Source: Gammaproteobacteria bacterium
GTDB taxonomy: Bacteria > Pseudomonadota > Gammaproteobacteria > Pseudomonadales > JAHFSE01
NCBI GenBank assembly: GCA_023265895.1
Contig: JAHFSE010000011.1
Location: 1 to 40,927 of the forward strand
Direction of reading: 5' to 3'
DNA: 40,927 nt
Shown here: in pieces, positions 18,087 through 37,267 of the stretch
Layout: each line of letters starts with the position of its first letter
Position numbering within the stretch: the first letter of the stretch is position 1
Made by a program: the position numbers and the translations under genes
Notes under the pieces: model-generated
Seen by the model: only the letters and a program-made list of their open reading frames with translations
Database searches by the model: none
What the model was told of the DNA's origin: nothing

Positions 18087-18114
18087 CAACCCTTTTCACT
18101 TAAGGAATATGACG

Positions 18115-18432
18115 ATGAAAAAAAGCTTTTTACTATTAAGCATGCTTTCAATCTCTGGATGTACAACCATTCACTTTGATAACGGTCCTCAGAATCCAAC
18201 TGACAAAACAATGAGTATTGAGCAATGGCATCACAATTTTGCCGGCGGCATATACGAAGGAAGCAAACCTGTAAATCTTGAAAAGTCGTGTGAAGGAAAA
18301 ACCTGGAATTCAGTGCAAACACAACTATCAGTGATGAATAATATTGCAAGCGGTTTGGTCAATGTGGTTGGGCCAATTTGGTACCCCAAAACAGTTACGA
18401 TTGCTTGTAAAAACATAACTGAAAAAAAATAA
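18115..18432 (+). CDS. second, diverged Bor-like lipoprotein
   Basis: Track ORF starts at 18079. SD AAGGA 18102-18106 favours ATG 18115 (alternative 18109). Lipobox LSISGC. Same layout as the first copy (HHNF..G...V....C.G..W..V.TQ...N....G.....PK.V.I.C), including the conserved Cys pair. Confidence 0.6.
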   Translation: MKKSFLLLSMLSISGCTTIHFDNGPQNPTDKTMSIEQWHHNFAGGIYEGSKPVNLEKSCEGKTWNSVQTQLSVMNNIASGLVNVVGPIWYPKTVTIACKNITEKK

Positions 18433-18520: not shown

Positions 18521-20254
18521 TTATAATACTACCTCCATCGCTTCTACGATCAACTGCAATGACTTCACACCACGATATTCATTCACACCTAACTTATAAA
18601 TTAAACGGACGTTATCTGCTGCATTAGGCCAAATTTTAGTATCAATATTAAAAGCAATGCCATCTAACACACGATTGCTTTCAGGCAACGACAACACCAT
18701 TTTCAAATGCCGCTGGCCTACAATTTTTTGTTCTAATAATTCAAAACACCCTTCGAATAATGGCTCAGGAAAATTCTGACCCCAAGGTAATAAATTCACT
18801 AACGTTTCAGCTAACGATAAATTCAGCTCTGCTTCCGTTAAACAACCATCGGTTAACCAAATGGCTTGTAATTGATCTTCACTTAAATACTGACGCACGA
18901 CTTGATTAAATGCAGTCGAAAAATCATGAAACTTCTCTTGAAACAAACTTAATCCGGCTGCCATCGCGTGACCACCAAATTTAAGGATTAATCCTGGATT
19001 TTTCGCCGCAATTTCATCTAACACATCACGAATATGCAAACCTGGAATAGAACGCGCTGAACCTTTCAATTGCTGATTTTTATCCTCAGCAAAGGCAATG
19101 ATTGGGCGATGAAATTTGTCCTTAATACGGGAAGCTAAAATACCAATAACACCTTGATGCCAACGACGGTCAAATAAACATAAACCATAAGGTAAATCCT
19201 TTGGATTCATTTTTAAATGATCTAAATAATGCAGTGCTTCTTGCTGCATACTGAATTCAATGGTTTTACGTTCTTGATTTAAACGATCCAATTGTGCTGC
19301 CAATTGACGTGCTTTTTGCGGATCATCACATAACAAACATTCAATGCCAATAGACATATCTTCTAAACGGCCCGCAGCATTTAAACGTGGCCCTACAGCA
19401 AAACCTAAATCACCAGCAACCAATCGTTCTAATGGTCGGTTGGCAATTTCTAACAACGCAATGATACCGACGCGGCATTGACCTACACGAATCCGCTGTA
19501 AACCTTGCTGCACCAACACACGATTATTATGATCCAACGGCACCACATCAGCTACCGTACCCAAAGCAACTAAATCAAGGAATTGCGCCATATTCGGTTC
19601 AGCAAGATGATTAGATTCAAACCAATGTATTTCACGTAAACGACTACGCAAGGCTGACATCACATAAAAAATCACCCCAACACCGGCTAAATTTTTACTG
19701 AGAAAATTACAGCCCGGCTGATTCGGATTAACGATTGCATCGGCCTCAGGTAATTGTGCGCCCGCCAAATGATGATCGGTAATCAACACCCGAATTCCTA
19801 GCGCTTTTGCTGCTTGCACACCTTCCACACTGGAAATACCATTATCCACTGTAATCATTAATTCTGGTTTTCTCTGAGCAGCCACTGCAACAATTTCTGG
19901 CGTTAAACCGTAACCATATTCAAAGCGATTCGGCACTAAATAATCTACGTGCTGAGCACCCATTGCACGCAAAGCTAACACCGCCACACTGGTGCTGGTT
20001 GCACCATCGGCATCAAAATCACCGATAATTAAAATCCGTTGTTGTTGGGTCAATGCAACAACTAACAAATCCATGGCTTGGGTTAAACCTTTTAATTGCT
20101 GCGGTGAAATCAGATATTTTAGATCGCACTGTAAATGCTGCTGCAAAACCGCACCACGACTGATTAATATTTTTTGAATTAAGGGATGAAGGGTTTCAAA
20201 TTGACCTAAGGATAAATCAGCTGTGCGGCGCTGAATGCGAAGCGGTGTATGCAT
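18521..20254 (-). CDS. recJ: single-stranded-DNA-specific exonuclease RecJ
   Basis: DHH-family motifs IIGDFDADGATS, ITVDNG and ITDHH; DHHA1 motif FGGHAMAAG. Confidence 0.95.
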   Translation of the reverse strand: MHTPLRIQRRTADLSLGQFETLHPLIQKILISRGAVLQQHLQCDLKYLISPQQLKGLTQAMDLLVVALTQQQRILIIGDFDADGATSTSVAVLALRAMGAQHVDYLVPNRFEYGYGLTPEIVAVAAQRKPELMITVDNGISSVEGVQAAKALGIRVLITDHHLAGAQLPEADAIVNPNQPGCNFLSKNLAGVGVIFYVMSALRSRLREIHWFESNHLAEPNMAQFLDLVALGTVADVVPLDHNNRVLVQQGLQRIRVGQCRVGIIALLEIANRPLERLVAGDLGFAVGPRLNAAGRLEDMSIGIECLLCDDPQKARQLAAQLDRLNQERKTIEFSMQQEALHYLDHLKMNPKDLPYGLCLFDRRWHQGVIGILASRIKDKFHRPIIAFAEDKNQQLKGSARSIPGLHIRDVLDEIAAKNPGLILKFGGHAMAAGLSLFQEKFHDFSTAFNQVVRQYLSEDQLQAIWLTDGCLTEAELNLSLAETLVNLLPWGQNFPEPLFEGCFELLEQKIVGQRHLKMVLSLPESNRVLDGIAFNIDTKIWPNAADNVRLIYKLGVNEYRGVKSLQLIVEAMEVVL

Positions 20255-20258
20255 GAAG

Positions 20259-20660
20259 TTATGAATGCTCCCAATCTTCCAGCCGTAACCCGATTACACG
20301 GCTGAACTCATGCGTATTATGTGTGACTAAAGTTATATCGTGAGCCCGTGCAATCGCAGCAATCATTAAATCATTGGGACCTATCAATTGACCTGCCATA
20401 GCAAGATCTGCCCGAATTAAACCATAATGCTCCGCACAACGATCATCGAATGGCAAACTCACTAAAGGCGCAAAGAAAAATTTTAATCGTTGAAGATTCA
20501 GGTCTACTTGCTGACTATGACGAGCACCAAATAACAATTCAGCTTTCACAATACTGCATATAGCAATCTCTGTAGGAGATCGAGATTGAAATTGCTGCAA
20601 AATCATTTTGTCTCGTTGATTTAATAATCGAATACAAACATTAGTATCGAGCAAAATCAT
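20259..20660 (-). CDS. vapC: type II toxin VapC (PIN-domain ribonuclease)
   Basis: MILLDTNV (N-terminal Asp), PNDLMIAA and VTHNTHEF are typical PIN acidic-residue positions. The start overlaps the antitoxin stop by 1 nt. Confidence 0.85.
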   Translation of the reverse strand: MILLDTNVCIRLLNQRDKMILQQFQSRSPTEIAICSIVKAELLFGARHSQQVDLNLQRLKFFFAPLVSLPFDDRCAEHYGLIRADLAMAGQLIGPNDLMIAAIARAHDITLVTHNTHEFSRVIGLRLEDWEHS

Positions 20661-20893
20661 TATTTAAACTCCAGACGATTCTCCATATCTCCCTGAGGTG
20701 GACGCACAAGTGCCTCACCTTGCCATTGACCAAACACTTGATCAAAATAGCCCTCTGGCCACTGATTTTTTGGAGCTGTTTCACGCTTCACCAGATCAGC
20801 TAAATAACGCGACAGTGAAAGATGGGCTTGCTGTGCTTTACGACGCAGCTGCACCTCTACCTCATCTGGCACATAAAAGTGTAATTGAGCCAT
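20660..20893 (-). CDS. vapB: type II antitoxin, ribbon-helix-helix VapB-like
   Basis: 77 aa. The N-terminal HFYVPDEVEVQLRRKAQQAHLSLSRYLADLV has a beta-strand/helix/helix pattern. SD GGAGAG lies just upstream of ATG 20893. Positioned directly upstream of vapC. Confidence 0.7.
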   Translation of the reverse strand: MAQLHFYVPDEVEVQLRRKAQQAHLSLSRYLADLVKRETAPKNQWPEGYFDQVFGQWQGEALVRPPQGDMENRLEFK

Positions 20894-20927
20894 AATCTCT
20901 CCAACGGTATATGTGGACTATGTGCCT

Positions 20928-20956
20928 AGAGTAGATTTTCACCCACGACCTGTCAA
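20928..20956 (-). promoter_or_regulatory. putative sigma70 promoter of vapBC
   Basis: On the minus strand: perfect -35 TTGACA (20956-20951), a 17-nt spacer, and -10 TACTCT (20933-20928). Two CACATA direct repeats lie between the -10 and the SD and could be an operator. Prediction by eye only. Confidence 0.35.
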
Positions 20957-20976
20957 TTTTTTATCGACACGCTCCA

Positions 20977-22050
20977 TCATAAAACGCTTAAAATAGCGTT
21001 TTTGACTGGATTTAACGCCGCATCAATTGTCATCATATTATCTGGATTAGATTGTTTAATGGCGGTGTCAGGATCCTTCAACCCATGACCGGTCAGAGTA
21101 CAGACAACAGTGCTACCTTCAGAAATTTTTCCCAACTGAATATCTTGCAAAGCACCTGCCACAGAAATGGCAGAAGCTGGCTCACAAAAAATGCCTTCTT
21201 GTTCAGCCAATAATTTTTGTGCAGCCAGAATTTCTGCATCAGAAAATTCCTTAAACCAGCCCTCAGATTCTTGTTGTGCAGCAATCGCCTGAATCCAAGA
21301 TTGTGGATGACCAATACGAATCGCCGTTGCAATGGTTTCTGGATTGTCGACGGGATGCCCCCGCAAGAAAGGCGCGGCACCAGAGGCTTGATAACCTAAC
21401 ATCTTCGGTTTAGCGGACGCTTTTCCATGATTAAAATATTCGTTATAACCTAACCAATAGGCAGTAATATTGCCCGCATTGCCCACCGGCAAACAATGAT
21501 AATCTGGTGCTCGACCCAGCGCGTCGATAATTTCAAAGCTTGCGGTTTTTTGACCTTGAATGCGAAAAGGATTAACCGAATTTACCAAAGTCACTGGGGC
21601 TTCTTGCGCAATCTGTTTAACCAATTCCATACCCTGATCAAAATTACCTTTAATTTGCAAAATAATTGCGCCGTACATCATGGTTTGCGCTAATTTTCCT
21701 AATGCAATTTTACCCTCAGGAATTAAGACAAAAGCTTTGATGCCGGCGCGTGCCGCATAAGCTGCCGCCGCTGCAGAAGTATTGCCGGTAGACGCACAAA
21801 TAATTGCTTTACTGCCCGCTTCTACCGCTTTTGTCACCGCCATAGTCATGCCGCGATCTTTAAAAGAACCGGTAGGATTGAGACCTTCATATTTCACATA
21901 AATATCAACGGATTTTTTTAATTGACGGGGAATATTTTTTAATTGAATCAGCGGTGTATTACCTTCACCCAAACTGATGATGGGCGTTTTATCGGCAACG
22001 GGTAAATAATTTCGGTAGTGTTCGATGAGGCCGGAATAATGGGTAGACAT
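20977..22050 (-). CDS. thrC: threonine synthase
   Basis: PLP-lysine motif [12 protein letters not shown], and [19 protein letters not shown]. Sits downstream of hom. Confidence 0.95.
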
Positions 22051-22079
22051 ATAACTATCTCTCTAATAAAAAAATAATT

Positions 22080-22174
22080 CCCCCCCCCTTTAACAAAGGG
22101 GGGTTAGGGGGGATTTTAATTATTCACGATATGCCGAGAAAAAATCCCCCTCAATCCCCCTTTTTCAAAGGGGG
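22080..22174. repeat. three consecutive G/C-clamped hairpins filling the hom-thrC spacer
   Basis: H1: CCCCCCTTT-AAC-AAAGGGGGG (22083-22103). H2: GGGGGATTTT (22108-22117) pairs with AAAATCCCCC (22141-22150). H3: CCCCCTTT-TTC-AAAGGGGG (22156-22174). Confidence 0.85.
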
Positions 22175-22177
22175 AAG

Positions 22178-23476
22178 CTAAAAACTCTCCAACCGAATCC
22201 GCGCTACCGGCGCACCGGTTTCAGGTAAAGCTTGAATTTTTGCAATCGCTGCATTCATTTCATACTCTAAAACTTTTTGCGTCAAAATAATAATAGGCAC
22301 TAAACCGCTTTGTCGGTGCACAGCTTGTTGACGAATCGCTTCAATGCTGATGCTATGCTCACTGAGAATTTTAGTAATATGCGCTAAGACGCCGGTTTTT
22401 TCGTGCACTTCAATACGCAAATAATAAGCGGTCTCCACCTCATCCATAGTAACCAAGGCTTGCTCTTCCGTTTCGCTAAAAGCTAAGGGCGGTACATGTT
22501 GCTGAGGATTTTCTAAAATACGAACAATATCGATAATATCGGCCACCACTGAAGAAGCCGTCGGTAAACTACCCGCGCCGGCACCATAATACAGTGAAGA
22601 TCCCACCGCATCGCCTTGCACCATCACCGCATTCATGACACCGTTGACTTGCGCAAGCATCTCTTCTTTGGCAATTAAGGTAGGATGCACTCGCATCTCA
22701 ATCCCTTTCGCGGAACGACGAATAATACCCAAATGTTTAATTCGATAGCCCAACTCCGCTGCATTACGAATATCCACCGAGGTAATTTTGCTAATCCCTT
22801 CGGTAAATACGCGCTTAAATTGAATCGGCATACCGAAAGCAATGGCGGCTAATAAAGTTAATTTATGTGCAGCATCGATGCCTTCCACATCGAAAGTAGG
22901 ATCCGCTTCGGCGTAACCCAACTGCTGAGCTTGTTTTAATGCTTCTGCAAAAGACCGTTGGCCCTGCTCCATTTCGGTGAGGATAAAATTACCAGTACCA
23001 TTAATAATGCCAGCTAAAGCCTGAATACGATTCGCTGCTAAACCTTCACGTAAGGCTTTAATGATGGGAATACCGCCAGCCACAGCAGCTTCGAAGGCCA
23101 AAATAACACCTGCTTGATGAGCCGCTTTAAATAATTCTTCACCCTGCTCTGCCAGTAGCGCTTTATTTGCGGTGACCACATGCTTGCCATGGGCAATGGC
23201 GGTGAGAATAAATTCTTTCGCTGTCGTCACGCCGCCTATCAGCTCCAGTACCAAATCTAATTCAGGATTACGCGCTACAGCTAAAACATCCTGTGTTATC
23301 GCATAAGCCGATGTGTCACACAGTGGATTAGCACGACGGGCAGCAATTTGCTGAATCTGTACGGGTCGACCTAATCGGCGCTCAATATCCGCACAGTTTT
23401 TTTGCAAAATATTGACCACACCGCTACCCACAGTGCCTAAGCCAGCAATACCTAATTTGACCGGTTTCACGCGCAT
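22178..23476 (-). CDS. hom: homoserine dehydrogenase with C-terminal ACT domain
   Basis: NAD-binding LGIAGLGTVGSGV; central catalytic region NGTGNFILTEM...GYAEADPTFDVEG; C-terminal ACT-like YYLRIEVHEKTGVLAHI. Confidence 0.93.
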   Translation of the reverse strand: MRVKPVKLGIAGLGTVGSGVVNILQKNCADIERRLGRPVQIQQIAARRANPLCDTSAYAITQDVLAVARNPELDLVLELIGGVTTAKEFILTAIAHGKHVVTANKALLAEQGEELFKAAHQAGVILAFEAAVAGGIPIIKALREGLAANRIQALAGIINGTGNFILTEMEQGQRSFAEALKQAQQLGYAEADPTFDVEGIDAAHKLTLLAAIAFGMPIQFKRVFTEGISKITSVDIRNAAELGYRIKHLGIIRRSAKGIEMRVHPTLIAKEEMLAQVNGVMNAVMVQGDAVGSSLYYGAGAGSLPTASSVVADIIDIVRILENPQQHVPPLAFSETEEQALVTMDEVETAYYLRIEVHEKTGVLAHITKILSEHSISIEAIRQQAVHRQSGLVPIIILTQKVLEYEMNAAIAKIQALPETGAPVARIRLESF

Positions 23477-23653
23477 ACCCTTTTAATGAGAAAAAATGGG
23501 AAGGCACATTATCCGGAGAGCAGAAGCGGTGTCAATCAAAGCTGTTGTTTTAAATTTCTACAAGCTGCGTGTCATTTGTATGTTGACCTTATCCCAAGTG
23601 TAGAAGCTCAAAACACTTCACCAACATTTTTGAAGCGCTACCTTAATTTTTTC

Positions 23654-26600
23654 TTATCGAATCACGCTAGAAATCGCCACTTGAGTCACCTTAGGCGCAT
23701 CATGGGTGCTTGATTCTTTCAACGAATGACCGGCTGGAATTAAGGCAAGAATAAAACCTAAACTCAGCAGTAAACTTTTAAACGGACGCTGACCATCACC
23801 TCCCACCATTCGAGTCAGCTCACCTAACTGTGCAGCACTATTTTCACCCGTATGTTGATTCAATAATTGCATATGCTGCTCTAGCTGTTTAATACGATCA
23901 TGCACTTTATTCGATTCCATTAACGGCTTCAGTACAACTGGCTCTCTTGCTGGTGTCATCGGCGATAGTGACTGTTTCTTCAGCTCAGCCACCTCATGGG
24001 TTAATGCTGTAAAAATATTTTGATACTCTCGATTCATCGCCTGCATCGCATCTTGCAGTTGTTTAACTAAGGGCGCCGACGCATCTTGATGAGTATCCTT
24101 TACTTGAACCAACTGACGGTGTAATTCAGTCACCTGCAAAACCAACTCACGATGCTGTAACTCACTTTGATCTAAGCGCTTTACCCAAGCTTGTTCACGT
24201 TGAGCTAATGCTTGCATAAATTGTTGCGATTCCATCGCTGTTACACCCACTTGTTGCAATTTGCTCTCAAACTGTTGCATCCAAGTTTCCACCTGTTGAT
24301 GCATCGATTGATTACTTTCCAACTCCTGCCGTACCAAAGTGGCATATTCTCTTAATTCAGAAAATTGTCGATTGGCCTGACCATTCCAATACACCTGCTC
24401 CTGCTGAAATTGTGCAGATCCATCTTGCACCTGTTGCGCCTGCTGCAACTGTTGTTGAACTTGCTGCTCAGCCTGTTGTGTTTTCGACAAACACTCATTG
24501 ACGTGCACCGCCATAGCATTCAGCAATTCTTTCGCCTGCTCCCATTTTTTTGAATTTTGTTCTGCAGAATCGCTATAGGCCTGCGCACTATTTAACAAAG
24601 ATTCTGTTTGCTGATATTTTTGTTCAATTTTCTGAATCCATGCAGATACTTTTTGTACTTGCTGATCCATATCATGATACATAGATTGACAACTACTTCT
24701 GACTTCAATCGCTTGCTGCACATGCTCTTGTGTTGCACCGGAATAATGTAAAAATTGCTGCTCCACTGTCTGCAATTTTTTCCATAATTCATGAGACTCA
24801 TTTAACAAATCACGAGTTTTTTGCATCTGACTGGCGGTGACTTGCTGAGTGGAAACACTATTCGCAATAATATGTTCCAACTCAAGATGTTTCGCCGTTA
24901 AAGTTTCCTGTAGGGCCGTAATACTACGCTGCTGTTGGGTCAACAGAGCCTGTTGATCGTGAATATTAGCTTGAAACAATTGCACCTGATCGATGTTTTC
25001 CAACACAACCTGCTGAGTATGCTGATTAATCGCTGTAAGGTTTTTTGCCTCTGCCAAAATCGTCTGTGATGTTTGTTGTTGTTGATTAAATACTAATTGA
25101 TCCGCTTGCTGCTGAGCAAACATTGCCTCAGAACTTGTTTTCATCGATTCATACAAATCGATTATTTTCTGTAATTCTTTACGCTGGACTTCATCTGATA
25201 CTGACTTTCTATCCATGACTTCTTGTTGCGCGGAAACTGTTTTAAGAATTTCCTTAGCAGAACATAATAATTTTTGATTATCTGATTTTAGCTCTACCAA
25301 TTCCTCCTGAATAGAATGTACCTGCTGTACACTATTATTCATCGAGAAAGATAATACCTCCACGGTAGCCTGTTGCTCCAACATCAGAGCATGGGTATTT
25401 TCAACTTGTTTTTGCAACGTCTGACAAGCTTCATGCGTCGCAGTAGAAGCAGAAGTTACTTCCTCTGCACGGGTACAAATAACCTGCATTTCTTCTCGGC
25501 AAGATTGCATCCAAACCATGGAATCATCGGTTTTTTTGTGCATTTCTGTTGCAGAAATCAAAGCTTGCTCAGAAGCAAAATGCAAAGTATCTAACGCATT
25601 ACGATACACCTCCATCTTCTGCTGATGTTGCTGCAACAAAGCATCCACTTCAGTTTTTTGATGCGCACCTTGATCTACCAAACCACGACATTCGGTTAAT
25701 ACCAAGCCAGCCAAATGACGCAATTCACTCCCTTCTTTAATCCCTTGATGAATATTTTGTTGTTGATCAAATAAAGAAGCATTGATTTCAGAAATTTTTT
25801 CTTGTTGTTTTTGATGTTCCAATAGATTTAGATTTATTTTTTCATCTAAATCCCTAATAGATTTTAAACCTTCCAAAACAACACGCTGAGTTTTTCTATT
25901 CATTTCTGACAATGCATTTAATTCAATTAACTTATTATCCACTGAATGAATAAACTCAGCCTGTTGAACAGAGCAGGACTGCTTAAACGATTCCACATTC
26001 GTCTCAACAGATTGGCACTGAGCATTTTGACGTTCAACAATGAGTTTATATTGCTCTTGTTGATTCTTAAGATGATGAGCAATATCACGCAATTGAGATA
26101 ATTTTTTGGTGTATTCTGCATGGAGATTTTGACTTTTCTGATATAAAGTCTGACTTCCAATCAATGCTTCTTGAGTTTGAATTTGTGATAATTCATTGGC
26201 TTTAACCAATGTTTCAAATTGATTTTTTTGCGTATCCGAAAGCATCAATAAATCTTTTGATTCCTTCAATAAATCAGCAATATTCTTCTGCATATTTTTC
26301 ATCTGCTCAGCAGATTGTGCTTGAGATTCAGAATCTTCAGAACATTTGGTTTGCAATTGTTGATAATTGCTGTAAGTTTTTTCTATTAATGCTGCAAAAT
26401 GTGCATTATCTTGTGTTAATTGATTTAACTGAATGGATTGTGCTTCTGTTTTTTCCGTTAAATCATGTGCTTTAGCATGGGTTAACTCTACTGCAGCTAA
26501 CATAGCCTCTACTTGTTGCTGCGTATGCTCTGCCTTCCCATAATAGGTATTGACTTGATCTAATAACTCATGAAAAGTTTCTTTCATTTCTAACTGTTGC

Positions 26601-29600
26601 TGAATACCCACTTGTATTTGTTCATCAGAACACTGGACCAACTGATTGACTTTTTCAAACAGATTCAACAATTCTTTTTGAGAGGCATTGACCTCCGTTT
26701 TTTGCTGGTTTAATGCCTCTAGAAAATAAGACCTCATGGACTCTAACTGAACAGCACGCTGCTCATCACGCTGCCCAGACAATGCATAATTTTCCTGCAT
26801 TGCCAAACATTCTTGATAAACATGATGAATATCATGAGAAAGTGCTTGGGTAGATGAATTTTGTTCACCAATTTTATTTAATAAATCAGCTAATTCTACT
26901 CTAAAGGCTTGATGCTCAGATCGCCCCGTATCCACATAATCTTTCACACTGATATTTAAAGATTCACATTTTGAAAACAGTTCATCAGCGCGGCCATGCA
27001 AAGCATTGCATTGAGATTCTTGTAATTGAGCCTGATTCAATAACACTGAAAATTTTTCTTCGAACAGAAAATTCATTGCTTCTTTTTGCTGCTGACCTTG
27101 ATTGAGTTGTTCGCTGGCACAACTCATTAATTCATTCACTTTATAAAATAATTCTGCCAAATCTTGGCGCGTGACTTCAAGTTGAGTTTTATATTGACTC
27201 ATTTCATCCAAAAAGTTTTGCTGCATGGCATCGATCTGCTGAGAATGCATTTCACCCCGCTCAGATTCTGCGAGTGTCGCCTGTTGTAGGCTTTGACATT
27301 CATGATAAATCCTAGCCATTTCATCAGCAATTGATTGAGTCACGGCATTTTGTCCAGCAACACGCTCTAACAAATTTTGCATCTCTGATTTCAAGACTTC
27401 ATTTGCTTGACGTTCTTCACCAAAACGATCAACCACTTGATTTTTTAACGCAGTATTCTCCATCACCATGCCATGAACCATATCATGCAACAGATTTGCT
27501 TGTTTTCTTTGTTCTTCTGCTTGTACCGTTAAATCAGAAAATCTATTTTGAAACTCTATAATTTTTTGATTATTAGACTCAGAAACAGTCAAAACTAATT
27601 TTGCATGATCTTTAATATCATTCACTTCATCTTTTATTTGATGCAAGCATTCTTGCTGAGCAACTGTTTTTTCATGAAGATCACGGGTATCCAAATGAAT
27701 TTTCTGAACATGATCAAACATTTCATAAATGTTTATTTTAAGCGCTTCAGATTCATAATATTGCTGTTGAATTTTTTCTTCTAATTGTTTGAAATCATTT
27801 TTCAGCTCTAATTTTTGCTCAGAGCTTGACTGCAATTGTTGATCAGCGCGCAAGACTAAATGATTTACCTGATCAAATAACTTCATTAAATCTTGATTGG
27901 CAGCATCCAAAACAGATTGATGACTTAACAAATCCGACAAAAATGTCTTTTGAATAAACTCCAAACGTTCAGAGTGTCCCTCATTAACGCGACTTTCTTG
28001 AGCAATTTGATCTTGCAACTGCAAACAAAATTGATGCGCCCGCACCAACTCAGACGATAGTTGATTGGTCATATCATTTTGCTGATTTACCTGATTCAAC
28101 AATTGAACAACTTCGTCTTTAAATTCCTGATAATCCGATTGAGATAATAATTTCTCTTCAGCTATATTTTTATTAATGGATTCACACTGAATCAAAACTG
28201 AATGCATCTGTTCATATAATTCATTAAAATGTTGCTGATGCGATTCGGACTGAATCATCATATCAGAAAATTTCTGTTGAAAGCCTAATACGGTAGAAGC
28301 ATGTGATTCAGCAATAACCAAAGCAATTTTTGCCTTATCACTGACTTCGCTCACTTCTTCAGATATCGCAATAAATTCCTGTTGTTGTACCGCCAGTTGA
28401 TTTTCTACTGCCCTAGTCAATTGATAGGCTGTATCTTGAGACTTTTCAGCAGAACGCACCATGAAATTAATTTTTTCCTGCATCTGCTCAGATTCATGTC
28501 GATAGCTTTCCATTTGACTCATTAAAATATCAAAGGATAAACGCATGTCTTCTTGCTGATCAAAACCAGACTTTAATTGTTCATCTGAGCGATGAATCAA
28601 TTGATTCAATTTTTCAAATAATTGTGATAAATCTTGATTTGCTAAATTCAACTGATTTTGATGATTAGAAATTTCTGAAAGAAAAGCCCGCTTAGTTTCT
28701 TCAAGTTGAACATCACGTACTTCGACTTTCTGTAGCCCATCAACAACTTCTACCTGTAAACGTACACACTCGTGATAAACCTGATTAAGTGCATCGGAAT
28801 CATTTTTTGAACGCTCATTTTGCGCATGCATTTGCTCAAGAAGGTGTTGCATTTCCGCCTTCAAAACTCGAGTAGTTTCTAAATCAACAGCACGATCTTC
28901 ACTCGATGCAGCATTCAATTGCTCACATCTCTGTAATACGTCGTTTACTTGATGATGTAACGCTACAGAAATATTTCGTTGCTCGCTAGCCTGCAATAAT
29001 AATTCAGAAAATTGAGCCTGAAATGCCTTAGATTTTTCTAGTTGTTCCGACAGTAATTGCTCTTGTTCTGACGCCAAATAAGATAATTTGGTATTAGTCA
29101 ATTCATGAGATTCAATAACTTGATGGGTTTTCTGTACATCTTGTCTTAATATTTGAATATCAGATAATAAACCTTGCAAAGATTGCTGGCTTTCCACTTG
29201 AAAAAATTCGGCCTTATTATGTAATGATTGCGCTTTTTCACATAACTCATTTAATATGATTTCTTTTTGTTGATGGCCCTCTATTAATGCTTCTACTCGA
29301 CTCCATTGCATTTCTTGCGTTTTAAATTTTTGTTGAAATTGATTGATTAATTCATTTGCTTCACATTTCAGTGCTGTCCAATACTGTTGATCTTTCAACA
29401 TACTTTGCAGCGAATGCTCCACTTGTATTTTAGTTTGGCAAGCTTGCTCTGTACTTTCTTCTAAATTTTTTAAATGTTGACGCGCATCAGAAAAGAATTG
29501 ATCTAATGCTTGCTTATCTTGTTTTATGCTCGATAATTGATCTTCTAAACGCCGATCAAATCCTTGCGCGCTATCTAAATAATGTTGTAGTAACAGTTTT

Positions 29601-30919
29601 TTTTGATCCGCATCTTCACAGAGTTTAAAAACACGACGATTTAATTGAGTGGATTCAGAAAAAATGGTGTGAATACTGGATTCCATCTCACCCATAGCCG
29701 ATTTTAATGTTTGCATTTCATATCGTTGTTCTTCTTGAAGATCTGTTTTTTGTAATACTTTCTCCATCACCTCTTGCGCTACGATTTGTAAGTGCTGATT
29801 TTCAGCATTCATGACTTGCATATCAGAAGTTTGCTTTTCTATATTCTCACGCACAGACTGAACGAGAGTTAATGAATCGCTAGCATCTTTTGCTGCCTTT
29901 AAAGCAGCAGATTTTGCTAATTCTATTTGCGCTAATGTAGATTCAACCAAAATAGATGCAGATTGATTTTGCTTTCTTTGATCTTGAAATTCACCTTTTA
30001 AAATCTCAACATGTTGCTTCATTAATTGCATATCACGATGCAATCGACGACTTTCATCTACATAGTTTTGACTTTCTTGTAATGAGGCTTGTAAATATTT
30101 TTTAGCTGCTAATATTTCTTGTTCTGATTGCACCTTTAACTCTGCACATTGGCGATTCACCGCTTCTATTGAAAATAAACTGCGCTGACTTTTTTCAGCC
30201 GTAGCTATCCAATCACCTACTTCTTTTTCTAAACTCATTTTTTCTTGTAATACTAGGTCTTTTGCTTCAGCGCACTCTATCATGGCTTGATTAGCTAATT
30301 GCAACGATTGCTGGGCCAAATTTTTAGAATGATCGACTGTCTGCGTTAATTGAATAATTTGTTGTTCCAGCTCAGCAGTATTTTGATGTTTTGCTTCAGC
30401 ACGCGTCATTAATTCTAGAACTCTTGCTCTTTCTTGCTCAATATCCTGTTTAAGAGCACGTAATTCGTAATTGTCACTTTTAGCGACATGTTGAATGCTA
30501 TCAACATCATGAAGTTGTCGCTGCAATTGACTTGTTATTTGGTAATGTTGCTGATTTAAACGTTCAACCAACTCATTCACATTACCTAATTCAGCATGTA
30601 ACCGCGTGGATTCTTTGAATAAATATTTTGCCTCAGCTAATTCTTTTTGTGCCTGCTCAACAAATAATGCCACTTCACTTTGAATATTTTTTTTACCTTG
30701 ACTGAGTAAATCTTGAATTTCTTCTTCATCTATTTTCGATTTTTCTTGAATCATTGCAGCATTTGGACGTACAGACTGGGTAAAGAAAATGCGCCCATTC
30801 ATATCTGAAGTTGATGTTGCAGCACTGGTTTCAGTAGGTGAATTTTTATCTAATCTAATAGAACGAGAAAACAGTGATCTAATTCGATGTTGCTGTTCTG
30901 AAGTATGATCATTTGACAT
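23654..30919 (-). CDS. giant (2421 aa) Gln/Glu/Leu-rich coiled-coil protein with a single C-terminal transmembrane anchor
   Basis: Uninterrupted 7266-nt ORF. SD AAGGA is 9 nt upstream of ATG 30919. No signal peptide. Only one hydrophobic helix, SLLLSLGFILALIPAG (nt 23720-23782 including flanks), 21 aa from the C-terminus. No enzymatic motif recognised. Confidence 0.85.
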   Translation of the reverse strand: MSNDHTSEQQHRIRSLFSRSIRLDKNSPTETSAATSTSDMNGRIFFTQSVRPNAAMIQEKSKIDEEEIQDLLSQGKKNIQSEVALFVEQAQKELAEAKYLFKESTRLHAELGNVNELVERLNQQHYQITSQLQRQLHDVDSIQHVAKSDNYELRALKQDIEQERARVLELMTRAEAKHQNTAELEQQIIQLTQTVDHSKNLAQQSLQLANQAMIECAEAKDLVLQEKMSLEKEVGDWIATAEKSQRSLFSIEAVNRQCAELKVQSEQEILAAKKYLQASLQESQNYVDESRRLHRDMQLMKQHVEILKGEFQDQRKQNQSASILVESTLAQIELAKSAALKAAKDASDSLTLVQSVRENIEKQTSDMQVMNAENQHLQIVAQEVMEKVLQKTDLQEEQRYEMQTLKSAMGEMESSIHTIFSESTQLNRRVFKLCEDADQKKLLLQHYLDSAQGFDRRLEDQLSSIKQDKQALDQFFSDARQHLKNLEESTEQACQTKIQVEHSLQSMLKDQQYWTALKCEANELINQFQQKFKTQEMQWSRVEALIEGHQQKEIILNELCEKAQSLHNKAEFFQVESQQSLQGLLSDIQILRQDVQKTHQVIESHELTNTKLSYLASEQEQLLSEQLEKSKAFQAQFSELLLQASEQRNISVALHHQVNDVLQRCEQLNAASSEDRAVDLETTRVLKAEMQHLLEQMHAQNERSKNDSDALNQVYHECVRLQVEVVDGLQKVEVRDVQLEETKRAFLSEISNHQNQLNLANQDLSQLFEKLNQLIHRSDEQLKSGFDQQEDMRLSFDILMSQMESYRHESEQMQEKINFMVRSAEKSQDTAYQLTRAVENQLAVQQQEFIAISEEVSEVSDKAKIALVIAESHASTVLGFQQKFSDMMIQSESHQQHFNELYEQMHSVLIQCESINKNIAEEKLLSQSDYQEFKDEVVQLLNQVNQQNDMTNQLSSELVRAHQFCLQLQDQIAQESRVNEGHSERLEFIQKTFLSDLLSHQSVLDAANQDLMKLFDQVNHLVLRADQQLQSSSEQKLELKNDFKQLEEKIQQQYYESEALKINIYEMFDHVQKIHLDTRDLHEKTVAQQECLHQIKDEVNDIKDHAKLVLTVSESNNQKIIEFQNRFSDLTVQAEEQRKQANLLHDMVHGMVMENTALKNQVVDRFGEERQANEVLKSEMQNLLERVAGQNAVTQSIADEMARIYHECQSLQQATLAESERGEMHSQQIDAMQQNFLDEMSQYKTQLEVTRQDLAELFYKVNELMSCASEQLNQGQQQKEAMNFLFEEKFSVLLNQAQLQESQCNALHGRADELFSKCESLNISVKDYVDTGRSEHQAFRVELADLLNKIGEQNSSTQALSHDIHHVYQECLAMQENYALSGQRDEQRAVQLESMRSYFLEALNQQKTEVNASQKELLNLFEKVNQLVQCSDEQIQVGIQQQLEMKETFHELLDQVNTYYGKAEHTQQQVEAMLAAVELTHAKAHDLTEKTEAQSIQLNQLTQDNAHFAALIEKTYSNYQQLQTKCSEDSESQAQSAEQMKNMQKNIADLLKESKDLLMLSDTQKNQFETLVKANELSQIQTQEALIGSQTLYQKSQNLHAEYTKKLSQLRDIAHHLKNQQEQYKLIVERQNAQCQSVETNVESFKQSCSVQQAEFIHSVDNKLIELNALSEMNRKTQRVVLEGLKSIRDLDEKINLNLLEHQKQQEKISEINASLFDQQQNIHQGIKEGSELRHLAGLVLTECRGLVDQGAHQKTEVDALLQQHQQKMEVYRNALDTLHFASEQALISATEMHKKTDDSMVWMQSCREEMQVICTRAEEVTSASTATHEACQTLQKQVENTHALMLEQQATVEVLSFSMNNSVQQVHSIQEELVELKSDNQKLLCSAKEILKTVSAQQEVMDRKSVSDEVQRKELQKIIDLYESMKTSSEAMFAQQQADQLVFNQQQQTSQTILAEAKNLTAINQHTQQVVLENIDQVQLFQANIHDQQALLTQQQRSITALQETLTAKHLELEHIIANSVSTQQVTASQMQKTRDLLNESHELWKKLQTVEQQFLHYSGATQEHVQQAIEVRSSCQSMYHDMDQQVQKVSAWIQKIEQKYQQTESLLNSAQAYSDSAEQNSKKWEQAKELLNAMAVHVNECLSKTQQAEQQVQQQLQQAQQVQDGSAQFQQEQVYWNGQANRQFSELREYATLVRQELESNQSMHQQVETWMQQFESKLQQVGVTAMESQQFMQALAQREQAWVKRLDQSELQHRELVLQVTELHRQLVQVKDTHQDASAPLVKQLQDAMQAMNREYQNIFTALTHEVAELKKQSLSPMTPAREPVVLKPLMESNKVHDRIKQLEQHMQLLNQHTGENSAAQLGELTRMVGGDGQRPFKSLLLSLGFILALIPAGHSLKESSTHDAPKVTQVAISSVIR

Positions 30920-31010
30920 GGTTGCAAATCCTTACGGCCTATTTCTCTGTCTGTGCTATATGCAGGTAGAAGCCCTTCACTTGAGGGGCAACGCTTAGGA
31001 TTTGCAACCA
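30919..31010 (-). promoter_or_regulatory. 5' leader long-range stem occluding the SD/AUG of the giant ORF
   Basis: GGTTGCAAATCCT (30920-30932) is the perfect reverse complement of AGGATTTGCAACC (30997-31009), and 30919/31010 also pair. An inner hairpin lies at 30972-30989. Confidence 0.5.
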
Positions 31011-31131
31011 CCATACCAGCATTCATTTTGATGTTTTAATAGCAATACTTCGCCTTTTTAATGCATTTATTGCGGTAAAAAAGCGGATAATTTGACACTC
31101 AAAGGAATATTAAAATAATCAGTAGCCAGAA

Positions 31132-32463
31132 TTATGACGCTTTAAAAATCAGCAAGGCATTATGCCCACCAAAAGCAAAGGATTGACTGATTGCATGCCT
31201 ACAGGTCAAAGAATAATTTTGAGTAGGCAAAATAAAAGGCGCTATGGGTTGTTGTAAATGTGCGTTCCCATGTACTTGCTGATCTAACAAAGACTGTATT
31301 GTGACAATCGCTTCAATGGCACCAGATGCACCGATCGCATGACCCATCCAACCTTTGGTTGAATTGACCACGACCTTATCACCAAATAATTGTGTGATGA
31401 CTTGGCTCTCTACTGCATCATTTTTTTCAGTGCCAGTACCGTGGGCATTAATATATTGAATAGCCTGCGCAGTTAACCCTGCTTCTGTTAATCCTTGCTG
31501 AATTAAGTGAATTAATTCACGACCCGAGGGATCAGGAATCACTAAATGATAGGCATCAAAAGATTCTGCATAAGCAACAATTTCAGCTAACGGCTTGACG
31601 CTATCACCCCATTGCTGGCGTTGTTGAAGACAATCGGCAGTTTCTAACAATAGAATACCAGCCCCACCTTCGGAAAATAAAAAACCATCCCGCTGTTGAT
31701 CGAAGGGTTTACAACTTTGATCTATGGGATTTGCTGCTGAAGTTAAAGCACCCATGCGATCAAAGGCTCGAAAACAAGCCCCCACATCATCACCTAACAT
31801 TTCTGCGCCTCCCACAATAGCCATATCTAACTGACCATTTCTAAGGGCGCGATAGGCTTCGCCTAAAGCAACAGTGCCGCTGGCACAGGCTTGACAATAG
31901 GTTTTCACTGGGCCGTGAATACCATAACGAATGGCTATGGCTGCTGCAATTGCGTTAGGCATTTGTCGAGGCACTGTGAGTCGATTGGCTTCCGTAACGT
32001 GAGGAAATAACAGAGGTATATTAGTCGACGATGATTGCGAGGATTTCTCTTTAAAATGATGATAAGCATTGGCTAAGGTTGTGGTCACACCACCAATGCC
32101 TGTCCCCATAAAAACACCGATACGATGAGGATGAATAGAACCATCCTTTGCAGATAAGCGCTCTGATAATCCTGCTTGTTGCAGCGCTTCCGCCACACCT
32201 ATCATCGCCATTAATGTCACTGGATCATACTGCAACAAATCCATTTTTTTATAACCCCACTGAGTGGGATTCAATGGCGGCAAAGGCACATAGACCTGAC
32301 TCACATAACGATGTCTATCAGTCCAGTGTGTGGGAATGGGTTGAATGACAGAAGTTTGCGCTAGAAGATTTTGCCACAGACAGTCAACGCCAGCGCCATA
32401 AACTGTATAAGCGCCTAGACCCGTAGCAAAAACTTGAACATGTGATGATGTCATAACAGTCAA
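31132..32463 (-). CDS. beta-ketoacyl-ACP synthase, FabF/KAS II-like
   Basis: Cys-His-His triad motifs CQACASGTVALGEA, INAHGTGTEKND and GHAIGASGAIEA. C-terminal FAFGGHNALLIF. Confidence 0.9.
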   Translation of the reverse strand: MTVMTSSHVQVFATGLGAYTVYGAGVDCLWQNLLAQTSVIQPIPTHWTDRHRYVSQVYVPLPPLNPTQWGYKKMDLLQYDPVTLMAMIGVAEALQQAGLSERLSAKDGSIHPHRIGVFMGTGIGGVTTTLANAYHHFKEKSSQSSSTNIPLLFPHVTEANRLTVPRQMPNAIAAAIAIRYGIHGPVKTYCQACASGTVALGEAYRALRNGQLDMAIVGGAEMLGDDVGACFRAFDRMGALTSAANPIDQSCKPFDQQRDGFLFSEGGAGILLLETADCLQQRQQWGDSVKPLAEIVAYAESFDAYHLVIPDPSGRELIHLIQQGLTEAGLTAQAIQYINAHGTGTEKNDAVESQVITQLFGDKVVVNSTKGWMGHAIGASGAIEAIVTIQSLLDQQVHGNAHLQQPIAPFILPTQNYSLTCRHAISQSFAFGGHNALLIFKAS

Positions 32464-32479
32464 TGTAATTTCATGAAAA

Positions 32480-32749
32480 TCAGACAGAGGAATCCAATGA
32501 CTGTGCTTTCAATTGCTGCATCACTAATTGCACCACATCTTGAAAAGTAACTAATTGAGTTAATTTTTCTTCATCCAGATCTTGGCCCAACTCAGCCTCC
32601 AGTAACGTCACTAAACTGACCACATCAAAGGAATCCAACCCTAAATCCTGCACCAATCGAGTATCTGGAGTAATTTTTTCCCGCTCAATATTCATTTCTT
32701 CGGCAATCAAATTTTTTACCATTTGTGCCACTTCATCCATGGTTTGCAT
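32480..32749 (-). CDS. stand-alone acyl carrier protein
   Basis: The track ORF extends to 32905, but SD AAGGAG lies 7 nt upstream of the internal ATG 32749. Phosphopantetheine site DLGLDSFDVVSLV. 89 aa, acidic. Confidence 0.85.
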   Translation of the reverse strand: MQTMDEVAQMVKNLIAEEMNIEREKITPDTRLVQDLGLDSFDVVSLVTLLEAELGQDLDEEKLTQLVTFQDVVQLVMQQLKAQSLDSSV

Positions 32750-32802
32750 ACAACATCTCCTTGCTGTTAATACACTTCGCTGACATCTCCCAATCAAACA
32801 TT

Positions 32803-34869
32803 TTATTCGGTATATAAAAACCACAGGGGCGCATAAGTCACGATCAATAAAGTGATACCCATGACGGCCAAAGGTAATAACCAATATTCTCGGCGATACC
32901 ACCAATGCTGCTCAACCTGTGTAAAAGCAAGTGACGATTCCTGATCACCCACGACTTGTCGAGTTAACAAACGGTTTAAAGCTACCGGTGGACTTAAATA
33001 ACCTAATTCAAAGGCCACTAAGGTCATCATCCAAAAATGTACAGGAATAACACCCTGCTTATACGCCAACGGTGCCAAGGAACCTGTGACTAAAACAACT
33101 GCGCCGAAAGGGTCCATAATCATACCAATCACCACTAACGCCGCTAAGAAATAGGTCATACTCAACCACAATTCATTCGCCATCGGAAATACTGAAAATA
33201 TATCAGAGCGCCCAATCGCGCCACCGGTCACAAAGGATAAACCCATTAATAAAATTAAAGCGCCGATATGCACCGTAGTATCGGTCGTTGCTTCTCGAAT
33301 GGTTTGTTCAAACGAGCTTGCTTGAATCCTCTCTGACGTCGTTGCTTGTAATTTTTTCGCAAAAAATTTCTCATACACCAACCAACTTAATACCACGACG
33401 GGCAAAATCAATGGTGCAGAAAATTCATTAAGGTGAGTACCCAGCAATAAACCATATCCCAAAGCAATCACAGCAAAAATAACAACATAAGGCATCAGAC
33501 GCCCGATTGCTTGTAATGAAGGCAACAACGCTGTTTTAGGTGAAGCCAATACCCAGGGCGTTTTTTTAGTTAAAAACGCCATGATAAAAAAGATCACAGC
33601 ACTCAACAAAAATACATTCACCCCCCAAGCATATAATTGATCCGTCACCACTTCTTTATTTAGAGCAGCGATTAATACCACGAGTAAACAAGGATACAAC
33701 ACCACACCAGAACTACCTGTCATAGCTGTTACTGCTAAAGCTAACTGACGACGGGCACCGACTCGGCGTAATTCTTGATATACCACAGCACCCATAGCAA
33801 TAATAATAATTCCAGAGGCACCGGTATAAGCAGTGGGCACTGCCATCACAATAATTGCAACCAAGGCCAATAATTCAGGCGGTAATTGCCAAGGCTTAAA
33901 AACACTAAAAACCAGCTGGCCCAGTTGCGTTCGCTTTAACAACATGCCGACCCAAATATACAGCCCAACATTTAAAAACATTTTTGCCTGTTCTAAAATT
34001 TGGCTGAAAAAAATCGCAATGCCTGCAAAGTGATGTTCGACATAAAAAAAGTAAGTTCCAGCGATAAAAGACATATAAACGTAAAGCGGCACTGTTAATA
34101 AAGCATGTCCCCAAGACGCATTTTCCTTAGGTAAATCGGCTGCACCTTTCATTAATTGGTAGAGATTGGTTAATAATAAACTAGCAAATCCAGCGATTAA
34201 TAAGATGTAAACCGCTGGATCTGTGACGGCAACACCGGAAGCATAAATTGATTTTCGATAACTCCAGGCAGCAATTAACAAAATACTGTGACTTAAAATA
34301 CTAGCGCTATTACAGACATAATAATCCAGTCGTGAGCTCACTACTCTAAACGAAATATGATGTTGAGTTCGAGATGCAGTTAATGCACAAACCCATAACA
34401 ACAAAAGTAAAATGACTTCCTGTTGGTCGGTGACAAATAAATTAAAGCCAGCAATATAATATTCGACCGAACGAAACACTTTAACGGCAGGCGTTAAATC
34501 ACGCAGCGTTTGTTGATAAACCTGATGCTGTTGCTGACACACCACTTGCTGACGTTGTAGAGAAATCCGTGCAGCATCACGATTAAAGGGTTCATCTGCT
34601 GACAACAAATCAATTTCATCACTACTGCTGACGCCGGATTGTGTCGCTAATTGATCTAATGCAGCATTAATATTTGCATGGGCATCGCAGCTAGGTTTGA
34701 CGGGGTCAATTCGTAGAACAAAATAATCATCCCATAACCAATGGCCTATTTTGAGAAATTCTGCATGCAAATAACTGCTGGTACCCGCAATCAAAACACA
34801 GACCAATAAAATCACCGCGGGAAAAGAAGAAAACCATTCTCGAGCGGAGCGATTCTTAATCATTTTCAT
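32803..34869 (-). CDS. TRAP transporter fused permease (DctQ-like N-terminal part + DctM large subunit)
   Basis: 688 aa and polytopic. AVPTAYTGASGIIIIAMGAVVYQELRRVG...AVTAMTGSSGVVLYP and DPFGAVVLVTGSLAPLAYKQGVIPVHFWMMTLVAFELGYLSPPVALN resemble the conserved DctM regions. The N-terminal ~300 aa has 4 TM with a ~110-aa loop. Confidence 0.75.
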   Translation of the reverse strand: MKMIKNRSAREWFSSFPAVILLVCVLIAGTSSYLHAEFLKIGHWLWDDYFVLRIDPVKPSCDAHANINAALDQLATQSGVSSSDEIDLLSADEPFNRDAARISLQRQQVVCQQQHQVYQQTLRDLTPAVKVFRSVEYYIAGFNLFVTDQQEVILLLLLWVCALTASRTQHHISFRVVSSRLDYYVCNSASILSHSILLIAAWSYRKSIYASGVAVTDPAVYILLIAGFASLLLTNLYQLMKGAADLPKENASWGHALLTVPLYVYMSFIAGTYFFYVEHHFAGIAIFFSQILEQAKMFLNVGLYIWVGMLLKRTQLGQLVFSVFKPWQLPPELLALVAIIVMAVPTAYTGASGIIIIAMGAVVYQELRRVGARRQLALAVTAMTGSSGVVLYPCLLVVLIAALNKEVVTDQLYAWGVNVFLLSAVIFFIMAFLTKKTPWVLASPKTALLPSLQAIGRLMPYVVIFAVIALGYGLLLGTHLNEFSAPLILPVVVLSWLVYEKFFAKKLQATTSERIQASSFEQTIREATTDTTVHIGALILLMGLSFVTGGAIGRSDIFSVFPMANELWLSMTYFLAALVVIGMIMDPFGAVVLVTGSLAPLAYKQGVIPVHFWMMTLVAFELGYLSPPVALNRLLTRQVVGDQESSLAFTQVEQHWWYRREYWLLPLAVMGITLLIVTYAPLWFLYTE

Positions 34870-34895
34870 ATAATTTTTTGATCCAAAGCAACGCC

Positions 34896-34917
34896 CCCTC
34901 TTTTTTGAAAGAGAGGG
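34896..34917 (-). other. intercistronic hairpin between the SBP and permease genes
   Basis: CCCTCTTTT / AAAGAGAGGG gives 9 bp with one bulged base and a 3-nt loop. The C-run/T-run/A-run/G-run design matches the hom-thrC hairpins. Confidence 0.5.
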
Positions 34918-34951
34918 CAGGGGAAGTTAAACTGATCACCGACAACTTTAA

Positions 34952-35968: not shown

Positions 35969-36005
35969 GCTCCTCAATCAGTCAATAATACAAGCTGCTC
36001 ACTTT

Positions 36006-37064: not shown

Positions 37065-37267
37065 GCGAAGCTCCAACCAAATCCATTATTCAATATTTTT
37101 GTTACGTGCACATTCTAGCGGTCATTTAAACCAAGCTCAGCATTGTACCCAGCCTATCCATGAACTCAAGAGATAATCCGCGGCAAGTGATTTGAAAGCC
37201 TCACAAAACCAGGTATCCTCGCCGCTCTAGAGCTATTAAATTTAATTTTTTACGCGCGGCACAAGGA

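Follow-up and report, generated by a model that had tools for sequence, protein, structure and literature searches.

What could a bacterium do with a protein of 2421 residues that is dominated by heptad-like sequence and ends in a single hydrophobic helix? The question is raised by contig JAHFSE010000011.1 (GenBank assembly GCA_023265895.1), of which a stretch of 40,927 nucleotides, hereafter the window, was analysed. The gene is a single unbroken open reading frame (ORF) of 2421 codons (7.3 kb) that begins with ATG and occupies positions 23654..30919 of the minus strand; we refer to it as the giant gene and to its product as the giant protein. An initial annotation, made without database searches, likened the protein to eukaryotic tail-anchored golgins and proposed a translocated tether or effector, or alternatively a cytoplasmic scaffold anchored in the inner membrane. 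The second proposal fits the evidence better, although the putative anchor is only marginally hydrophobic. We tentatively read the giant protein as a cytoplasmic, inner-membrane-attached coiled-coil scaffold or tether that may reach up to ~330 nm.

The giant gene is real, intact, and lineage-restricted. An independent Logan assembly of SRR14366796 is 100% identical over 15,432 nt (window positions 22152-37583), a region that includes both gene junctions. The gene call in that assembly is likewise 2421 aa. No tandem or long repeats were found at the DNA level within the giant gene, which rules out a repeat-driven assembly artefact. GC content at codon positions 1/2/3 is 0.54/0.27/0.29, an asymmetry like that of coding sequence. 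The matching second assembly, the absence of DNA repeats, and the codon-position GC together indicate that the ORF is neither a chance frame nor a product of assembly, and the uninterrupted ORF of the initial annotation therefore stands. A Shine-Dalgarno-like AAGGA lies 9 nt before the ATG. The ORF is separated by 212 nt from the upstream gene, which encodes a ketoacyl-ACP (acyl carrier protein) synthase (KAS), and by 177 nt from the downstream gene hom, which has its own near-consensus promoter (TTGACA-16-GATAAT). Because it has its own ribosome binding site, the 212-nt upstream gap, and a neighbour with a separate promoter, the giant gene looks like a stand-alone transcription unit.

Most of the giant protein is a rod of heptad repeats, as the initial annotation had noted from its Q/E/L/K-rich sequence. 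Its composition is 14.6% Q, 11.2% L, 10.3% E, and 6.2% K (Q+L+E = 36%), and none of its 10 prolines lies between residues 52 and 2283, a span of ~2230 residues. The residues L, I, V, M, and F recur with a periodicity that peaks at exactly 3.5 residues (local Fourier power 0.716, versus 0.194 +/- 0.023 for shuffled sequences; z = 22.9) and loses power at 3.67 residues. In a crude register-tracking model, a heptad frame is held over residues 72-2315 with 16 register shifts, and its score of 293 compares with 46-75 for shuffles. Position d of this model is mostly Leu, and position a is mostly Leu, Val, or Ile. The rise of a coiled coil is 0.1485 nm per residue, so that the rod would measure ~330 nm if fully extended. 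The 27 cysteines of the protein are scattered along the rod, a distribution that is atypical for exported fibres.

Within the rod, residues 626-1500 comprise four diverged copies of a ~245-residue unit (35 heptads), of which the third is truncated. The copies are ~28-34% identical in pairwise comparisons (BLAST E-values down to 1e-26), and 23 columns, located at a/d and e/g positions, are invariant across all four. Divergence to ~30% within an unbroken frame, together with these invariant columns, points to an old, selected coding sequence. AlphaFold2 models contain only helices over residues 626-878 and 2121-2316. With the other repeats supplied as the alignment, repeat 1 is modelled as two long helices (predicted local distance difference test score, pLDDT, 77.9; predicted template modelling score, pTM, 0.31) with a helix break at a conserved Gly-containing spot, and a Foldseek search of the PDB with this repeat model gave no significant match (best E 5.5). 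The model of the C-terminal 301 residues is of low confidence (pLDDT 50.7, pTM 0.39) and was used for secondary structure only.

Both ends of the giant protein differ from the rod. Among the first 45 residues, 14 are Ser or Thr, and the N-terminus contains neither a hydrophobic stretch that could be a Sec signal nor a twin-arginine motif, in agreement with the short, Ser/Thr-rich, signal-less N-terminus described initially. A motif scan of the whole protein detected no Walker A, LPXTG, RTX, GlyGly-CTERM, or PEP-CTERM, and the export and sorting signals GlyGly-CTERM, PEP-CTERM, LPXTG, RTX repeats, and Tat are rejected on these grounds. At the other end, the rod is predicted to be joined by a flexible linker to the helix SLLLSLGFILALIPAG. 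This helix is the sole hydrophobic segment of the protein, because it accounts for the only 19-residue Kyte-Doolittle window above 1.6 (maximum 1.79; peak at residues 2379-2400). The initial annotation correctly recognized a single hydrophobic helix but placed it 21 residues from the C-terminus, whereas 24 residues follow it. If the helix spans the membrane, this tail is predicted to be periplasmic. Bacterial proteins count as tail-anchored when they have a transmembrane segment within the C-terminal 65-70 residues (PMC12981334), and the giant protein has its single candidate segment within that distance and no N-terminal signal sequence. No E-block (EExxE) occurs in its last 30 residues, and the last 24 carry a net charge of +1.

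The hydrophobicity of SLLLSLGFILALIPAG was calibrated against other proteins of the window, by using Kyte-Doolittle values and a Hessa-type score that is a simple 19-residue sum. Single-pass anchors encoded in the window (CtaG, BatD, and hyp356) have Kyte-Doolittle values of 2.2-2.75 and Hessa-type sums of -1.7 to -2.0, and the signal-peptide core of AdeT has a Hessa-type sum of +2.65. The soluble enzymes have Hessa-type sums of at least +4.9, although Hom nevertheless reaches a Kyte-Doolittle value of 1.89. At +3.1, SLLLSLGFILALIPAG scores lower than the window's soluble proteins but higher than its true anchors and is thus a plausible but marginal membrane helix. The coordinates of all of these elements are listed below.

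Features of the giant gene and its product, with positions in the 40,927-nt window
Feature	Residues	Position	Strand	Properties	Basis
Shine-Dalgarno-like AAGGA		30929..30933	-	9 nt 5' of the ATG	sequence reading
Complete coding sequence, giant protein	1-2421	23654..30919	-	2421 aa + stop; 279 kDa, pI 5.2, net charge -124	
N-terminal part	1-71	30707..30919	-	heptad-free, Ser/Thr-rich, Pro 28 and Pro 52, no hydrophobic signal	
Heptad-repeat (coiled-coil type) rod	72-2315	23975..30706	-	2244 residues, proline-free 53-2282	composition, periodicity, register model
Internal repeat 1	626-872	28304..29044	-	~35 heptads	
Internal repeat 2	873-1116	27572..28303	-		
Internal repeat 3	1117-1279	27083..27571	-	truncated, without roughly the last third of the unit	
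Internal repeat 4	1280-1500	26420..27082	-		
Linker	2316-2381	23777..23974	-	Pro-rich break (SLSPMTPAREPVVLKP), short helix, Gly-rich hinge (MVGGDGQRPFK); net charge 0	
Hydrophobic helix SLLLSLGFILALIPAG, candidate tail anchor	2382-2397	23729..23776	-	19-residue Kyte-Doolittle 1.79, Hessa-type sum +3.1	
Polar C-terminal tail	2398-2421	23657..23728	-	24 residues, net +1	

The lack of an export signal, the 27 scattered cysteines, the acidity, ~2240 residues of heptads, the hinge, and the terminal apolar helix together suggest a cytoplasmic protein. In the mechanism that we propose, the protein would be made and retained in the bacterial cytoplasm because it has no Sec or Tat signal and carries scattered cysteines, and its rod (residues ~72-2315) would pair with one or more identical chains as a parallel coiled coil. 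The enrichment of Leu at d and of beta-branched residues at a weakly favours a dimer. A Pro/Gly hinge would link the rod to the moderately hydrophobic C-terminal helix, which may insert post-translationally into the inner membrane or bind to it, and pairing of the chains would bring at least two such helices together and perhaps strengthen binding through avidity. The protein would be oriented N-in, with the 24-residue tail outside; this topology would be dictated by the preceding 2381 residues, which have no signal and must remain in the cytoplasm. The outcome would be a flexible fibre of at most ~330 nm that is tied to the membrane at one end and serves as a structural scaffold of the coiled-coil-rich protein (CCRP) type or as a tether. 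The four diverged 35-heptad repeats could provide reiterated docking surfaces, and the free distal end could be the Ser/Thr-rich N-terminus. That the chains oligomerise, that the helix enters the membrane, that the protein resides in the cytoplasm, and that it serves as a scaffold or tether are all steps that we infer.

Several points weigh against this proposal. The function is deduced from architecture. The helix is short (16 residues) and marginal, contains Pro, Gly, and Ser, and has a Kyte-Doolittle value below that of the soluble Hom (1.79 versus 1.89). Its flanks carry charges of +2 and +1, so that the positive-inside rule is uninformative. No homologue that could show conservation of the anchor was detected in our searches. 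The pTM values for the mutual arrangement of the helices are low (0.31 and 0.39), and the rod could fold back to be far shorter than 330 nm. Finally, the finding that no secretion-system, chaperone, or eukaryote-like gene is present covers the 41-kb window, and secretion systems may be encoded elsewhere in the genome.

The giant protein appears to be a singleton without detectable relatives in the proteins searched. Pfam identifies no domain in it, and the only NCBIfam hit is a sub-threshold match to the SMC coiled-coil arm model TIGR02168 (23 bits, versus a cut-off of 567). PHROGs gave 0 matches and PADLOC none, and sequence searches of the PDB, for which both the whole protein and a repeat profile served as queries, returned only generic coiled coils (E >= 0.035). 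The homology to a known family that the initial annotation had proposed to look for was thus not found in the libraries searched. Queried with the whole protein, a word index of 5.8 billion clusters yielded only the protein itself, and an exhaustive phmmer search with its C-terminal half (residues 1222-2421) detected no relative among 1.84 billion representatives of ~15 billion proteins. A word-index search with the repeat profile missed the parent protein itself and is not counted as a reliable negative. No match was found in JGI metagenomes or IMG/VR, nor by tblastn in GenBank phages or PLSDB plasmids. The 87 loci collected from relatives contain no tblastn homologue and no ORF of more than 1500 aa. 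The 90% cluster of the giant protein has one member, and all assemblies in which the gene is known are metagenomic and apparently derive from one sample. When metagenomes were scanned with the neighbouring KAS, the best match was just 33%.

The source organism, an uncultured gammaproteobacterium of marine type, appears to belong to a poorly sampled lineage of Pseudomonadales (in the GTDB sense) whose nearest relatives are Alcanivorax-like. The closest Hom sequence has 92% amino acid identity and comes from Logan assembly ERR12084916, in a 1.9-kb contig with 56 nt upstream of hom. The next matches are 65-67% identical and belong to metagenome-assembled genomes (MAGs) labelled 'Pseudomonadales bacterium', followed at ~61% by Alcanivorax, Halopseudomonas, and Marinomonas. 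The short-form ThrC of the window is 76% identical to Alcanivorax ThrC, whereas Hom is ~61% identical in those genomes. The source genome has ~42% GC and an ordinary metabolism of the free-living type. The functions encoded in the window are likewise ordinary for gammaproteobacteria and include a BatA-D-like VWA/TPR cluster, an aa3-type cytochrome oxidase with CtaG, a 7TMR-DISM hybrid kinase, Bor lipoproteins, RecJ, VapBC, ThrC, Hom, an ACP and FabF-like KAS pair, a TRAP transporter, and a molybdoenzyme.

Gene order shows where the giant gene is lodged. In all four relatives with 65-67% Hom identity, dsbC is found upstream of hom (together with an aminotransferase gene in one), and xerD lies beyond it in three. 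The three longer contigs share the order ffh-rpsP-rimM-trmD-rplS-xerD-dsbC-hom-thrC-recJ-prfB-lysS, and the fourth is too short at both ends. The window retains hom-thrC-(vapBC)-recJ (18521-23476), but both flanks are rearranged relative to these four loci (L082, L084, L085, and L087), and the giant gene and the KAS/ACP/TRAP block occupy the place of the relatives' xerD-dsbC. The changed flanks imply that the giant gene is located at a lineage-specific rearrangement.

Base composition offers no case for a recent foreign origin of the giant gene. The initial annotation judged by eye that the gene is more AT-rich than the flanking hom and KAS genes, and calculation agrees: its GC content is 0.369, versus 0.39-0.47 for its neighbours. 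The drop is found mainly at codon position 2 (0.274, versus ~0.35-0.50 in neighbours) and is therefore largely a consequence of the Q/E/K/L/N-rich amino acid composition. At the third codon position, GC (GC3) is 0.291, versus 0.347 expected from the synonymous usage of the neighbours, and the resulting deviation (-0.056) is no larger than those seen among the other 20 genes in the window, which range from -0.061 to +0.088. AT-richness is thus not a mark of foreign DNA here, and recent horizontal transfer is rejected as an explanation for it.

The main rival to a membrane-attached scaffold is a soluble, intermediate-filament-like protein similar to crescentin, FilP, or Scy, in which the hydrophobic stretch would mediate oligomerisation or partner binding or act as a peripheral membrane peptide. 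We consider this unlikely, though more probable than any other alternative. Most of the coiled-coil-rich proteins known from bacteria are not integral to the membrane. The segment itself is of marginal hydrophobicity, is short, and includes Pro and Gly, the soluble Hom and molybdoenzyme of the window reach similar Kyte-Doolittle values, and AlphaFold2 confidence at the helix is very low (pLDDT <40). However, its Hessa-type sum is clearly below those of all soluble proteins of the window and near that of the AdeT signal-peptide core. Moreover, SLLLSLGFILALIPAG is the sole apolar stretch in 2421 residues and is set off by a flexible hinge, as expected of an anchor. The same segment enters into a further rival, which elaborates the translocated-effector proposal of the initial annotation: a type III or type IV secretion system (T3SS or T4SS), or a similar one, would export the protein into a eukaryotic host, the helix would tail-anchor it in an organelle membrane, and the rod would mimic tethers of the golgin or EEA1 type. 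The layout does resemble that of tail-anchored golgins (PMC4707255). The anchor, being intermediate in hydrophobicity among the window proteins, agrees with the moderate hydrophobicity reported as typical of effectors that escape targeting by the signal recognition particle, and coiled-coil membrane effectors such as LegC2/3/7 and IncA are known (PMC12981334). The lineage-specific location of the gene at a synteny break and the Ser/Thr-rich N-terminus are also in its favour. On the other hand, in most T4SS membrane effectors the topology is N-in/C-in with two segments, which differs from a lone tail anchor (PMC12981334). The absence of secretion, chaperone, and eukaryote-like genes from the window, the lack of an E-block, and the failure of the homology searches to find similarity to any eukaryotic or effector protein likewise count against export into a host. 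To our knowledge, effectors are also far smaller than 279 kDa. The genomic context that had been cited in favour of an effector does not hold either: the nearby 'MORN-like' protein has no Pfam support, the genome has ~42% GC and a free-living type of metabolism, and the nearest relatives are Alcanivorax-like bacteria and Pseudomonadales MAGs with ordinary housekeeping synteny. A translocated effector is thus improbable, and the claim is not supported.

Two other explanations place the protein outside the cytoplasm or the gene outside the chromosome's own stock, and both are very improbable. Giant bacterial proteins are usually surface proteins (PMC12863079), and an acidic protein with unusual sequence features at its C-terminus could be an extracellular or periplasmic fibre or adhesin exported by a nonclassical route, for example by a type I system that recognizes the C-terminus. 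In contrast to such proteins, it lacks a signal peptide, RTX repeats, LPXTG, and any Ig-like or beta-rich domain; it contains 27 cysteines and is predicted to be entirely alpha-helical; and its gene has no ABC transporter, membrane-fusion protein, or TolC-type gene beside it. The initial annotation was therefore right to set it apart from autotransporters and from LPXTG, RTX, and Ig-repeat adhesins, and the lack of any Pfam domain is in keeping with this. A tape-measure-like helical protein or plasmid filament protein, acquired horizontally as cargo or remnant of a prophage or other mobile element, would suit the synteny breakpoint (where relatives have xerD-dsbC), the nearby vapBC module, and a GC content below that of the flanks; great length, a helical structure, and poor conservation are also features of tape-measure proteins. 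However, PHROGs, IMG/VR, GenBank phages, and PLSDB plasmids yielded no match, the gene has neither an integrase nor a phage structural gene nor a tRNA next to it, and the GC3 deviation, which is in the range of the neighbours, gives no compositional sign of recent transfer. It is scarcely credible that the ORF is an artefact or nonfunctional, whether open by chance, chimeric through assembly, or decaying as a pseudogene. A singleton without homologues, assembled from the metagenome of apparently one sample, invites such suspicion, but a 2421-codon open frame in 37% GC DNA cannot be chance, and the strong codon-position asymmetry, the heptad signal (z = 22.9), the diverged in-frame repeats, the identity of two assemblies over both junctions, and the proper ribosome binding site all speak against it. 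A scaffold or tether attached to the inner membrane remains the reading that we tentatively prefer.

Several genes around the giant gene merit separate description. Directly upstream, beside the TRAP transporter, a stand-alone ACP and a FabF-like KAS are encoded at 31132-32905 (-). The KAS scores 298 bits against an equivalog cut-off of 494 for fabF, and the couple is probably a specialised pair of the lipid or polyketide type. Between thrC and recJ, which directly adjoin each other in the three relatives whose recJ is called intact, lies a vapB/vapC pair (77 and 133 aa; 20259-20893, -), the VapC of which matches NCBIfam at 1.5e-43. Two tandem, slightly overlapping paralogues of the Bor lipoprotein family (PF06291, 1.2e-24 and 4.6e-10; 17787-18432, +) occupy the site after recJ where relatives have prfB-lysS. 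A 550-aa protein encoded at 4879-6531 (-) contains a full trypsin domain of the eukaryote type (PF00089, 7.5e-49), with a signal-like stretch at its N-terminus and, around residue 521 in its C-terminal part, a hydrophobic stretch. The ORF at 39794-40927 (+), which the initial annotation called MORN-like, runs off the end of the window. Its N-terminal part is Pro-rich, and the visible 378 residues have no Pfam match at E <= 0.1. The few vaguely MORN-like Y-x-G...G-x-G strings seen by eye are unsupported.

In a survey of ten bacterial proteomes, coiled-coil domains of more than 250 residues were largely absent, and none exceeded 400 (PMC1322226). Against this background, the giant protein appears unusual as a putative structural coiled-coil protein of a bacterium that combines exceptional length, a candidate tail anchor, and, so far, the status of a singleton. 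If our reading is true, few structures of this kind that have been proposed for a bacterium would be as long as its ~2240-residue membrane-anchored heptad rod. An extended rod would cover a large fraction of the length of a cell, and one may ask what a bacterium would have to hold or measure so far from the membrane. It is also a very large orphan gene: repeats that have diverged to 30% show a long history, yet no relative was detected in the proteins searched. Its orphan status bears both on how rapidly coiled coils drift beyond recognition and on the under-sampling of this Pseudomonadales lineage. The weight of these considerations is limited by the fact that the gene comes from a single metagenomic organism and that architecture is the handle on its function, and the giant protein alone opens no long-standing question. 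A bolder conjecture, to which we give little probability, is that the giant protein is an independently evolved bacterial counterpart of the eukaryotic tail-anchored tethers. As a ~300-nm membrane-anchored fibre, it might organize a membrane domain or another structure inside the bacterium's own cell or be delivered to a host to capture or re-route vesicles, and it would found a family without detectable relatives.

Comparison with known systems helps to place these possibilities. Among bacterial proteins, long coiled coils are widely conserved only in SMC, MukB, Rad50, and SbcC (PMC1322226). The weak TIGR02168 match links the giant protein to the arm of such ATPases only, and it lacks Walker A, head or hinge domains, and fold-back symmetry. 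Unlike the giant adhesins (RTX/Bap/LapA, autotransporters, and LPXTG proteins), it has no export signal, beta-rich domains, or sorting motif; unlike phage tape measures, it has no phage-family homology, and its neighbours are housekeeping genes. LegC2, LegC3, and LegC7 of Legionella and IncA of Chlamydia share with it a coiled coil and moderate hydrophobicity of the membrane segments (PMC12981334). However, these effectors are far smaller, as a rule contain two adjacent transmembrane segments, and belong to bacteria with Dot/Icm or a T3SS, whereas the giant protein has a single C-terminal segment, no E-block, no homology to them, and no secretion genes in the window.

Other likenesses are found among bacterial proteins that are wholly or largely cytoplasmic. 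As in the giant protein according to our reading, a signal peptide is absent from the bacterial tail-anchored proteins ElaB/YqjD/YgaM, DjlC, Flk, and TssL, their N-terminal bulk is cytoplasmic, and a lone transmembrane segment lies near the C-terminus. They are roughly 100-500 residues long and have defined domains (DUF883, the J-domain, and others), none of which was found in the giant protein, whose anchor is weaker and whose tail, at 24 residues, is longer. Crescentin, FilP/Scy, Helicobacter Ccrp, and the cyanobacterial CCRPs are cytoplasmic, poorly conserved scaffolds that are dominated by coiled coil and free of catalytic domains. The giant protein resembles them in its dominant coiled-coil rod without enzymatic domains, but is ~2-10 times longer, has a candidate hydrophobic anchor at its C-terminus, contains four 245-residue repeats, and has no detectable homology to them.

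The golgins (giantin/GOLGB1, golgin-84, and CASP) differ from the giant protein in several respects. The giant gene is bacterial and sits among gammaproteobacterial housekeeping genes, its anchor is shorter and less hydrophobic than a typical tail anchor, and there is no evidence for Rab-binding or vesicle-binding motifs. The kinship that a golgin-like layout might suggest is not borne out, because neither giantin nor any other eukaryotic protein was matched in sequence, and Pfam, the 5.8 billion clusters, and the 1.84 billion representatives (searched with residues 1222-2421) revealed no similarity to golgin families. What does stand is the architecture: both are signal-less and have a very long acidic coiled-coil rod, one C-terminal anchor or candidate anchor, and a short tail. 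In golgins, such an extended projection is able to capture partners at a distance (PMC4707255). The resemblance between the two is an analogy of layout only.

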